A stretch of 64,000 bases of DNA from Dehalococcoidia bacterium. GTDB taxonomy: Bacteria > Chloroflexota > Dehalococcoidia > Lucifugimonadales > Australimonadaceae. Below the pieces are notes generated by a model, which was not told where the DNA came from, searched no databases, and saw nothing but the letters and a program-made list of their open reading frames with translations. This document shows, in pieces, positions 62,901 to 64,000 of this stretch. Made by a program: the position numbers and the translations under genes. The stretch's first letter is position 1. Every line of letters starts with the position of its first letter. The stretch spans positions 335,640 to 399,639 of the forward strand of contig CBDCOP010000007.1 in assembly GCA_965219845.1 (NCBI GenBank). Direction: 5' to 3'.

Positions 62901-63247
62901 TACAAGGGGTGAGGGTGAGGGTACTGTGGGCCGGGGCGTGGGGGTGTTGCGGGAGCGGGGGAGGACCTCGTCGTTCCTGCGCACCTTACTTGTCATTCCG
63001 AGCGCAGCCGAGGAATCTCTCAGGAGACGCCCCGTCGCGTACTAACGTTCCCTCATAAAGACAGAGACCGCCACGAGGGCGGTCTCGACCCTACCGGCGA
63101 AGCGATAGGGGTGGTAACACAAATGTACACGCCTACGGCACGCGTGGCAACCGCGCCGCGCTTCCTGACCCTCTCTCCCTCTGGGAGAGGGTGCCACGGC
63201 AGTGGCAGGTGAGGGTGGGCGCGACAGCGCCCCTTCCGTCATTCCAG

Positions 63248-63302
63248 CCCACACCCGTCATTCCAGCGAAGGCTGGAATCCAGGTGGCCGGCAGGCCACG
63301 CG
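63248..63302. repeat. Left copy of a perfect 55-bp direct repeat flanking the GIY-YIG gene
   Basis: CCCACACCCGTCATTCCAGCGAAGGCTGGAATCCAGGTGGCCGGCAGGCCACGCG, identical to 63946-64000. Contains hairpins ATTCCAGC-GAAG-GCTGGAAT and GTGGCC-GGCA-GGCCAC. Confidence 0.95.
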
Positions 63303-63490
63303 GTGGGGTGGGCGTGGGGTGAGGGCGGGACGGGACGCATGGGCGACCCCGATGCGCGGCTGCGCCGCGGTGTGCGCTGCCGCGCACGTCTGGATTCCAG
63401 CCTCCGCTGGAATGACGGGACCGGGGCTGGAACGACGAGAAAGGGGATGCCCGACAGGGCACACGGCTGGGAGTGGAGGGATGGGAAGCG

Positions 63491-63805
63491 TCAGCCAATC
63501 TCATCGTAGAGGTCGCGCCATTCAGGATTCGACTCCTCTATCAGCCTGAGCTTCCACTTCCTCTGCCACGCCTTGATCGCCTTCTCCCGGGCAATGGCGC
63601 TCATCATCGTCTCGTGCTGTTCGTACCACACGAGGGTGTGGACGCCGTGCCGCTTCGTGAAACCGTCACCGAAGCCCTGCTGGTGCTGCCAGATGCGCTG
63701 GGGCAGATCGGACGTAACGCCAAGGTAGAGCGTGCCGTTGCGGCGGCTCGCGAGGAGGTATACGCAGGGACGCCTGGGTTCCCTGCGGCGGTGACCATAG
63801 GTCAT
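63491..63805 (-). CDS. GIY-YIG nuclease family protein (YhbQ/UPF0213-like)
   Basis: VYLLASRRNGTLYLGVTSDLPQRIWQHQ (GIY...YIG, R, H) and EKAIKAWQRKWKLRLIE. Start taken at MTYGH (ATG 63805). Confidence 0.8.
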   Translation of the reverse strand: MTYGHRRREPRRPCVYLLASRRNGTLYLGVTSDLPQRIWQHQQGFGDGFTKRHGVHTLVWYEQHETMMSAIAREKAIKAWQRKWKLRLIEESNPEWRDLYDEIG

Positions 63806-63831
63806 GCGGAGAGTGTACGTGAAGGCGCCAG

Positions 63832-63964
63832 CCCACACCCGTCATTCCAGCCCACACCCGTCATTCCAGCCCACACCCGTCATTCCAGCCCACACCCGTC
63901 ATTCCAGCCCACACCCGTCATTCCAGCCCACACCCGTCATTCCAGCCCACACCCGTCATTCCAG
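63832..63964. repeat. 19-bp tandem repeat, 7 units
   Basis: CCCACACCCGTCATTCCAG x7 exactly, running into the right 55-bp direct repeat. The left locus (63238-63266) has only about 1.5 units. Confidence 0.97.
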
Positions 63965-64000
63965 CGAAGGCTGGAATCCAGGTGGCCGGCAGGCCACGCG
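63946..64000. repeat. Right copy of the perfect 55-bp direct repeat (truncated by the window end)
   Basis: Identical to 63248-63302. Confidence 0.95.

Follow-up and report, generated by a model that had tools for sequence, protein, structure and literature searches.

A small GIY-YIG nuclease gene with CGTC-tagged hairpins at a probable Ssn-family locus in a Dehalococcoidia genome

Gene and repeats at the locus

We analyzed a 64-kb stretch of DNA, referred to here as the window, that spans positions 335640-399639 of contig C7 in the 3.54-Mb genome of a Dehalococcoidia bacterium (65% G+C, nine contigs, 98% complete). Near the right end of the window lies a short gene, designated here ssn1, which is bracketed by direct repeats (Table 1). 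The only Pfam match of its 104-aa product was PF01541 (GIY-YIG; E=3.9e-14), in agreement with the small nuclease that a preliminary description of the sequence had placed between the repeats. An alternative GTG start codon at position 63838 would extend the protein to 115 aa but falls inside a 19-bp tandem array. Homologues of the ssn1 protein are 94-104 aa long and its relatives number in the thousands, with identities of 65-76% even in Proteobacteria and Terriglobia. Three of its residues (Y16, Y27 and E74) do not vary across 16 aligned sequences. The nearest solved structures were those of UPF0213 proteins, a weak match (E=1.5e-4), and UvrC also matched weakly; no Ssn structure was among the solved-structure matches, and an NCBIfam search with the protein returned no meaningful family.

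Table 1. Coordinates of the features at the ssn1 locus, in window positions.
Feature	Position	Strand	Remarks
Extra half-site CCGTCATTCCAG	63236..63247	+	Tag and left arm of the hairpin
Left 171-bp unit (U1)	63248..63418	+	97.6% identity to the right unit
NTS/SRM hairpin CGTCATTCCAGCGAAGGCTGGAATCCAG	63256..63283	+	CGTC tag, 8-bp stem, GAAG loop, CCAG tail; published SRM pattern; DNA fold
Second small palindrome GTGGCC-GGCA-GGCCAC	63284..63299	+	Directly 3' of the hairpin
Palindrome GTGCGC-TGCC-GCGCAC	63372..63387		Precedes the inverted hairpin of U1
Inverted NTS/SRM hairpin, minus-strand CGTCATTCCAGCGGAGGCTGGAATCCAG	63390..63417	-	Right end of U1
Spacer, U1 to ssn1 stop codon	63419..63490	.	Contains a decayed half hairpin (63426-63439) and the palindrome-like GATGCCCGACAGGGCAC (63446-63462)
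ssn1	63491..63805	-	Single-domain GIY-YIG nuclease, probably of Ssn type; 104 aa from ATG
19-bp tandem array	63828..63965	+	Perfect; 7.3 copies of CCCACACCCGTCATTCCAG
Right 171-bp unit (U2), in-window start	63946..64000	+	Reaches ~64115 past the window; contains an NTS/SRM hairpin (63954-63981) and a second palindrome (63982-63997)

The bracket had originally been recognized as two identical copies of the 55-mer CCCACACCCGTCATTCCAGCGAAGGCTGGAATCCAGGTGGCCGGCAGGCCACGCG, and these are indeed exact at both sites (63248-63302 and 63946-64000). The chance expectation for such a match is 0 (100 shuffles), and no further copy with three or fewer mismatches was found in the 64-kb window. The true repeat is longer. 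Exact identity covers 63236-63302 and 63934-64000 inside the window and extends past its end to 74 bp (63236-63309 versus 63934-64007). The full direct repeat is a 171-bp unit, and the right copy continues well beyond the window; the two copies differ by two substitutions and a 2-bp indel. Genome-wide, the unit has only these two full copies, both at the ssn1 locus, plus one copy at 72% identity, numbers on which we rejected it as a dispersed MITE. The 55-mer comprises a short flank, a CGTC-tagged hairpin and a second small palindrome, and as single-stranded DNA it folds into just these two hairpins (-14.9 kcal/mol, z = -3.3). The 171-bp unit as a whole is symmetrical, with a tag, hairpin and palindrome followed by ~70 bp of G-rich spacer and then by a palindrome, hairpin and tag. 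The inverted hairpin previously noted inside the bracket exists, but at 63390-63417 and not at 63380-63408. The order on the plus strand is U1, a 72-bp spacer, ssn1 (on the minus strand), the 19-bp array and U2. Each 19-bp repeat corresponds to the hairpin's left arm together with its CGTC tag and the flank upstream, and the array occupies most of the gap between the start of ssn1 and the right repeat. On the left, the extra half-site and the adjoining unit make up ~1.6 copies of the same 19-bp repeat.

The anatomy of the locus can be observed directly. The bracket around ssn1 is best explained by local duplication of a 171-bp hairpin dimer, and the 19-bp array by slippage that expanded the tag and left arm. 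In addition, U1 resembles a small version, lacking the gene, of the hairpin-ssn-hairpin cassettes of congeneric species described below. A recent duplication or gene conversion, as proposed in the preliminary description, is reasonable for the 171-bp unit, but the perfect identity of the 55-mer overstates how recent it was because part of the 55-mer is a functionally constrained motif.

Hairpins and ssn genes within and across genomes

The hairpins of the locus belong to a large genomic set. A simple pattern (GTCRTTCC...GGAAY) retrieved ~434 tagged hairpins from the genome, and a fixed-length hairpin pattern gave 375 matches versus 0 for the reversed pattern. Adjacent hairpins no more than 300 bp apart were arranged head-to-tail in 155 of 174 pairs. 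The hairpins form subtypes that differ at two stem positions, both sides of the stem changing together so that the change is compensated. The first varying position distinguishes ATTCC...GGAAT from GTTCC...GGAAC, and the second distinguishes TTCCAGC/GCTGGAA, TTCCTGC/GCAGGAA and TTCCCGC/GCGGGAA. An abundant second subtype has a stem that starts with GT and ends with AC. Set beside the CGTCATTCCAGC-type and CGTCGTTCCTGC-type hairpins is the canonical, CGTCATTCCCGC-type, hairpin.

The genome contains only two ssn genes of this GIY-YIG type, each of them amid its own hairpin subtype. The second gene, ssn2 (C7:412825-413121), is located 13 kb from ssn1 and encodes an intact 98-aa paralogue with 57% identity to the ssn1 protein. 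The CGTCATTCCAGC subtype, with 53 copies genome-wide, surrounds ssn1, whereas ssn2 is surrounded mainly by the CGTCGTTCCTGC subtype (221 copies genome-wide) and lies within an array of head-to-tail 46-47-bp units, of which six are upstream of the gene and five downstream. Of all 20-kb bins in the genome, the two with the highest hairpin density are those that contain the genes. Both genes also have a hairpin within 250-500 bp on either side, as do only 0.2-0.5% of random 315-bp windows. A search for a Y1/RAYT transposase (PF01797) had no match in this 98%-complete genome, and involvement of a RAYT was rejected on this ground.

The association between gene and hairpin was observed across genomes as well as within this one. 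We examined 80 homologous loci from named genomes of Dehalococcoidia, Anaerolineales, Alpha-, Beta-, Gamma-, Delta- and Zetaproteobacteria, Latescibacterota and Tepidisphaeraceae, the encoded proteins being 65-84% identical to the ssn1 protein. A GTC-tagged hairpin was present within 500 bp of the gene at 77 of the 80 loci, and on both sides at 65. Hairpin density was 3.4/kb near the gene versus 0.33/kb beyond 1 kb, a tenfold local enrichment. In the commonest arrangement the tags are outermost, which gives the loci inverted ends, and at about a dozen loci the gene is flanked on either side by a hairpin dimer, as it is at ssn1. The gene-proximal hairpins of ssn1 have the opposite orientation to the commonest arrangement, with tags next to the gene rather than distal to it.

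Strains and congeneric species revealed variation on two scales. Contigs that encode an identical ssn1 protein (~97% nucleotide identity) share the gene context of ssn1 but differ from it in the copy number of the repeats. The upstream 19-mers number seven here and four in contig L081, and form a broken set in L082; on the other side of the gene there is one 171-bp unit here and several in both L081 and L082. An insertion sequence in L081 is absent here. Within the genus, 16 of 18 other species had 1-7 ssn matches (range over all, 0-7), including fragments and copies with stop codons, and all 18 contained hairpins (46-1239 per genome). Hairpins are fewest (46) in the genome whose only ssn matches are fragments, and no ssn gene was detected in two congeners with 135-172 hairpins, whose assemblies are fragmented. 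A relationship between ssn presence and hairpin count in the genus is, from these figures, suggestive only.

Probable membership of the Ssn/SRM system and possible mobility

The pairing of a small GIY-YIG nuclease with hairpins of this kind has a published counterpart in Neisseria (Chenal et al., 2025, Nat Commun 16:2388, PMC11893778). SsnA of N. meningitidis is a 94-aa single-domain GIY-YIG protein (CDD cd10448, ‘GIY-YIG_unchar_3’) associated with the Neisseria Transformation Sequence (NTS), defined as CGTCATTCCCGCGMAVGCGGGAATCYRG (Chenal et al., 2025). Homologues of ssnA are bordered by the NTS or by a relaxed form, the SRM; 71% of them have an SRM close by and 42% have one on each side, and the typical gene arrangement is NTS-ssnA-NTS (Chenal et al., 2025). 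The purified enzyme binds the motif only as single-stranded DNA, and only one of its strands, and cuts a few bases upstream of the motif; Y6, Y17 and E64 are required for cutting (Chenal et al., 2025). Critical within the motif are the GTC that precedes the palindrome and the C that follows it, and altering the stem sequence while keeping the hairpin abolishes activity (Chenal et al., 2025). In N. meningitidis, SsnA reduces transformation by motif-bearing DNA, and three more homologues, from two other Neisseria species and from Wolbachia, each cut near their own repeat (Chenal et al., 2025).

We compared the ssn1 locus with this organization. The published SRM pattern, HGTCWYN(0-2)YYVSBRHN(0-5)WNVSBRGN(0-2)RNCYNB, matches the plus-strand hairpin of each 171-bp unit, within 500 bp of ssn1 on both sides. 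In its strict form the pattern had 126 matches in the genome, versus 36-58 in five first-order Markov simulated genomes, and the exact Neisseria NTS consensus had 33. The hairpin flanking ssn1 (CGTC-ATTCCAGC-GAAG-GCTGGAAT-CCAG) is identical to the NTS consensus save for one compensated stem pair, and it keeps the critical bases on both sides of the palindrome, GTC in front and C behind. At 104 aa and with a single GIY-YIG domain, the ssn1 protein has the size and domain content that characterize Ssn (~94 aa, less than 150 aa, single GIY-YIG domain). Furthermore, Y16, Y27 and E74 are spaced 11 and 47 residues apart, just as Y6, Y17 and E64 are in SsnA, the length being 94 plus 10 aa; judged by this spacing, the three residues are the probable catalytic equivalents. 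Proteobacterial proteins of ~95 aa that are bordered by canonical NTS hairpins are 65-76% identical to the ssn1 protein. We conclude with good confidence that this is an Ssn-family locus, in which ssn1 is accompanied by its recognition hairpins (NTS/SRM, equivalent to the CGTC-1 REP), an assignment based on residue spacing, motif identity and locus architecture. Against it weigh the tag-inward orientation of the hairpins next to ssn1, the weakness of the best match to a solved structure and the two congeners, with fragmented assemblies, in which hairpins but no ssn gene were detected. The pairing has been published as Ssn/SRM, so that the locus adds a clear further case to a known system rather than introducing an element of a new kind.

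By homology with the tested enzymes, the ssn1 nuclease would recognize the CGTC-tagged hairpin when it is folded in single-stranded DNA, would do so for one strand only, and would cut a few bases 5' of the tag, sparing double-stranded DNA and RNA. The hairpins around ssn1 and the several hundred in the rest of the genome would be its recognition motifs, with ssn1 probably pairing with the CGTCATTCCAGC subtype and ssn2 with the CGTCGTTCCTGC subtype. Both the activity of the enzyme and its restriction to one strand are predictions drawn from the literature. That the nuclease might nick these hairpins had been suggested in the preliminary description, and the suggestion gains support from family membership, given that tested relatives cut single-stranded DNA a few bases upstream of just this hairpin, and from the 77 of 80 loci with a hairpin nearby, although for ssn1 the activity is predicted. 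The idea is not new because it was published in 2025 (Chenal et al., 2025). In this Dehalococcoidia organism, the system could restrict incoming single-stranded DNA, as in Neisseria, or contribute to repeat dynamics. The genome also encodes ComEC and DprA homologues, which are too widespread to inform on transformation here.

Could the cassette also move, or have moved? Chenal et al. (2025) likened NTS-ssnA-NTS to an insertion sequence and to RAYT/REP and left mobility as a hypothesis. In its fullest form, this explanation makes the hairpin-ssn-hairpin cassette a present or former autonomous mobile element, whose mechanism, based on a GIY-YIG enzyme specific for single-stranded DNA, would be of a new type. 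Ssn would then be the mobilizer of CGTC REPs, the 171-bp units would be gene-less derivatives resembling MITEs or REPINs, and Ssn activity would also have produced the head-to-tail arrays that surround both ssn genes. Such an explanation is compatible with an Ssn locus, adding a function to Ssn. The congeneric species provide its main support. At eight congeneric ssn loci, sequence similarity forms a block of ~460-470 bp whose limits are the outer CGTC tags, whereas the DNA outside is unrelated in most pairs, and a second palindrome of the same kind as in the 55-mer lies inside both ends of the cassettes. These boundaries and the differing contexts fit a discrete cassette that has changed position. 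Consistent with this, copy number ranges from 0 to 7 per genome, with fragments and stop-codon copies, and six congeners have the neighboring 84-aa gene without an ssn gene beside it. The 171-bp unit shares the terminal modules of the cassette, minus the gene. The lack of a RAYT in the genome, the published statement that CGTC REPs are without a dedicated transposase (Di Nocera, De Gregorio and Rocco, 2013, BMC Genomics 14:522, PMC3733652) and the insertion-sequence-like architecture (Chenal et al., 2025) also point in this direction.

Several observations weigh against mobility. No empty site was found at base resolution, the flanking DNA of the six congeners being, at ~70%, too diverged to define a junction, and no target-site duplication was found. 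GIY-YIG enzymes are not known to have strand-transfer activity. Dispersed, near-identical copies of the cassette were not found either: the two ssn genes of this genome are only 57% identical and the 171-bp unit is confined to one locus. Furthermore, the common arrangement puts the two predicted cut sites on opposite strands, a poor fit to simple single-strand excision. The congeneric cassettes have diverged to 75-84%, which is about the divergence of the species themselves, and movement, if any, must therefore be old. On balance, we consider an autonomous mobile cassette possible but doubtful.

A different kind of mobility, in which the direct repeats are the ends of a composite mobile unit and the nuclease gene is its cargo, had been put forward in the preliminary description and was not supported. 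Direct repeats of 97.6% identity around a single gene do have the appearance of such a unit. Yet the genome has two full 171-bp copies, both of them at the ssn1 locus, and strains with an identical protein carry one to several extra units on one side of the gene, in a local array whose copy number varies in the manner of tandem amplification, while the gene context is unchanged. Direct repeats of this type arise readily by local duplication and promote deletion, not transposition. With neither a target-site duplication nor an empty site found, a composite unit is improbable. Least credible of all is a coincidence, in which a small GIY-YIG gene with no relation to the repeats, for example that of a free-standing homing endonuclease, lies in a repeat-rich intergenic stretch. 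The surrounding 13 kb are indeed so saturated with repeats that any gene there would be near one, but 77 of 80 homologous loci across phyla show the association with tenfold local enrichment, ssn2 is embedded in its own hairpin array, and other enzymes of the family have been shown to bind the hairpin and to cut next to it (Chenal et al., 2025).

Comparison with known systems

As a probable Ssn-family locus, ssn1 and its hairpins extend the Ssn/SRM system to a genome of the Dehalococcoidia (Chloroflexota). The two genes, ssn1 and ssn2, also provide a natural pair of paralogues for testing how very small enzymes read sequence as well as shape, a ready test because the hairpin subtypes differ at two compensated stem positions. 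More modestly, and only indirectly, the changes in repeat copy number among strains, which we observed directly, and the ends of the congeneric cassettes at CGTC tags bear on whether Ssn moves or amplifies repeats. If true, a mobile Ssn cassette would answer the question, outstanding since 2013, of the missing transposase of the CGTC REPs, an answer raised only as a hypothesis by Chenal et al. (2025). Four details may be new: the copy-number differences between strains near the gene, the limits that the tags set to the cassettes of congeneric species, the presence of two nuclease/hairpin-subtype pairs in one genome and the predominance of head-to-tail arrays, unlike the published habit of CGTC REPs. 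Beyond these points, the locus is an ordinary example of the published system.

The likeness to Ssn/SRM comprises a single-domain GIY-YIG protein of ~100 aa with the same catalytic Tyr-Tyr-Glu spacing, a near-identical hairpin (CGTC tag, 8-bp stem, 4-nt loop and a C after the stem), a motif on both sides of the gene and hundreds of genomic copies of the motif, clustered around surface-protein genes. Unlike the published cases, the host is a member of the Dehalococcoidia (Chloroflexota) and not a proteobacterium, and the activity is here a predicted one. The ssn1 protein differs from SsnA in its 10-residue N-terminal extension, and the hairpin has an A-T stem pair where the Neisseria NTS has C-G. 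The gene-proximal hairpins are tag-inward because ssn1 has a complete hairpin dimer on each side. This genome is also set apart from published Ssn examples by its second paralogue, whose hairpin subtype is a different one, and by the arrangement of the hairpins mostly in head-to-tail arrays.

The hairpins also resemble the CGTC-1 family of tagged REPs, to which Neisseria dRS3 and Rickettsia RPE-6 belong; its members combine a CGTC tag and a CCA tail with an 8-bp stem that starts with AT and a loop of 4 nt (Di Nocera et al., 2013). These features are shared by the hairpins described here, except that the abundant second subtype starts with GT, and so is the lack of a tyrosine transposase. CGTC REPs are mostly head-to-head dimers, with negligible head-to-tail pairs (Di Nocera et al., 2013), whereas head-to-tail pairs prevail in this genome (155 of 174), a departure from the habit of the family rather than from a strict criterion. 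No partner enzyme was proposed in the CGTC-1 paper; the later work on Ssn supplied one that binds and cuts the repeat.

The comparison with RAYT/REP systems suggested in the preliminary description had already been made in the discussion of Chenal et al. (2025). The enzymes differ, Ssn being a GIY-YIG protein and not an HUH/Y1 transposase, and strand transfer has been reported for no Ssn. The tag is CGTC rather than GTAG, and the genome is without a Y1 transposase. As in RAYT/REP systems (REPtron, REPIN), a nuclease gene in one or two copies is bordered by a short hairpin repeat of which the genome is full, the folded single-stranded form is the substrate of the enzyme, as predicted here for Ssn, and hairpin dimers may serve as non-autonomous units.

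A second ssn gene and variation at the ssn1 locus

The genome carries an intact paralogue, ssn2, of the window's GIY-YIG nuclease gene, ssn1 (see table). ssn2 is enclosed in a tandem array whose 46-47-bp units, all containing the CGTCGTTCCTGCGGAGGCAGGAAC hairpin, run head to tail on the gene's strand. Of these units, 6 lie upstream and 5 downstream of ssn2, the nearest downstream one beginning 9 bp past the stop codon. At the ssn1 locus, two related-strain contigs (L081 and L082) that encode a protein identical to that of ssn1 have several additional local copies of the 171-bp hairpin-dimer unit and of the 19-mer half-sites (CGTC tag plus left hairpin arm). 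Thus, the repeat content of the locus varies between strains. L081 also carries a DDE transposase gene, which is not present at the corresponding place in the window's genome.

Features of the ssn loci and their coordinates
Feature	Location	Strand	Remarks
8-bp stem CGCAGGGA / TCCCTGCG	window 63763-63787	minus	ssn1 codons about 6-14
Extra local repeat copies around the ssn1 gene of related strains	L081 3400-4710; L082 2200-4540		
DDE transposase gene (PF13701/PF01609)	L081 600-1925		~1 kb upstream of ssn
ssn2 and its array	C7:412560-413600		13 kb past window end; intact, 98 aa, 57% identical to ssn1

Hairpin or hairpin-like sequence in the coding ends of ssn homologues

An 8-bp stem falls within the 5' part of the ssn1 coding sequence, where the stem region codes for the extension RRREPRRPC. 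The extension is present in Dehalococcoidia proteins, absent from the 95-aa proteobacterial ones, and similar to the peptide translated from a hairpin arm (RRQEPR). In the alignment of 16 Ssn homologues, the called ORFs of P0104 and P0111 extend into the flanking hairpins, yielding the ends ...SPVIPA (C-terminal) and MDTGIRRYDE... (N-terminal). These two proteins show that translated hairpin sequence contaminates the annotated termini of small Ssn homologues.

Distribution and orientation of the hairpins

The same-genus genomes G014 and G015 contain 172 and 135 tagged hairpins, respectively, and no ssn homologue was detected in either; because the assemblies comprise 110 and 20 contigs, respectively, the gene may merely be unassembled. 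G001, which has ssn fragments only, has the lowest hairpin number in the genus comparison (46). Genome-wide, the window's genome has approximately 92 copies of a Neisseria-like canonical subtype, CGTCATTCCCGC, including 33 exact matches to the Neisseria Transformation Sequence consensus, and no ssn gene adjoins hairpins of this subtype. Throughout the same genome, 155 of the 174 adjacent pairs of tagged hairpins (spaced 300 bp or less) are head-to-tail, whereas head-to-head dimers predominate and head-to-tail pairs are negligible among the published CGTC REPs (PMC3733652).
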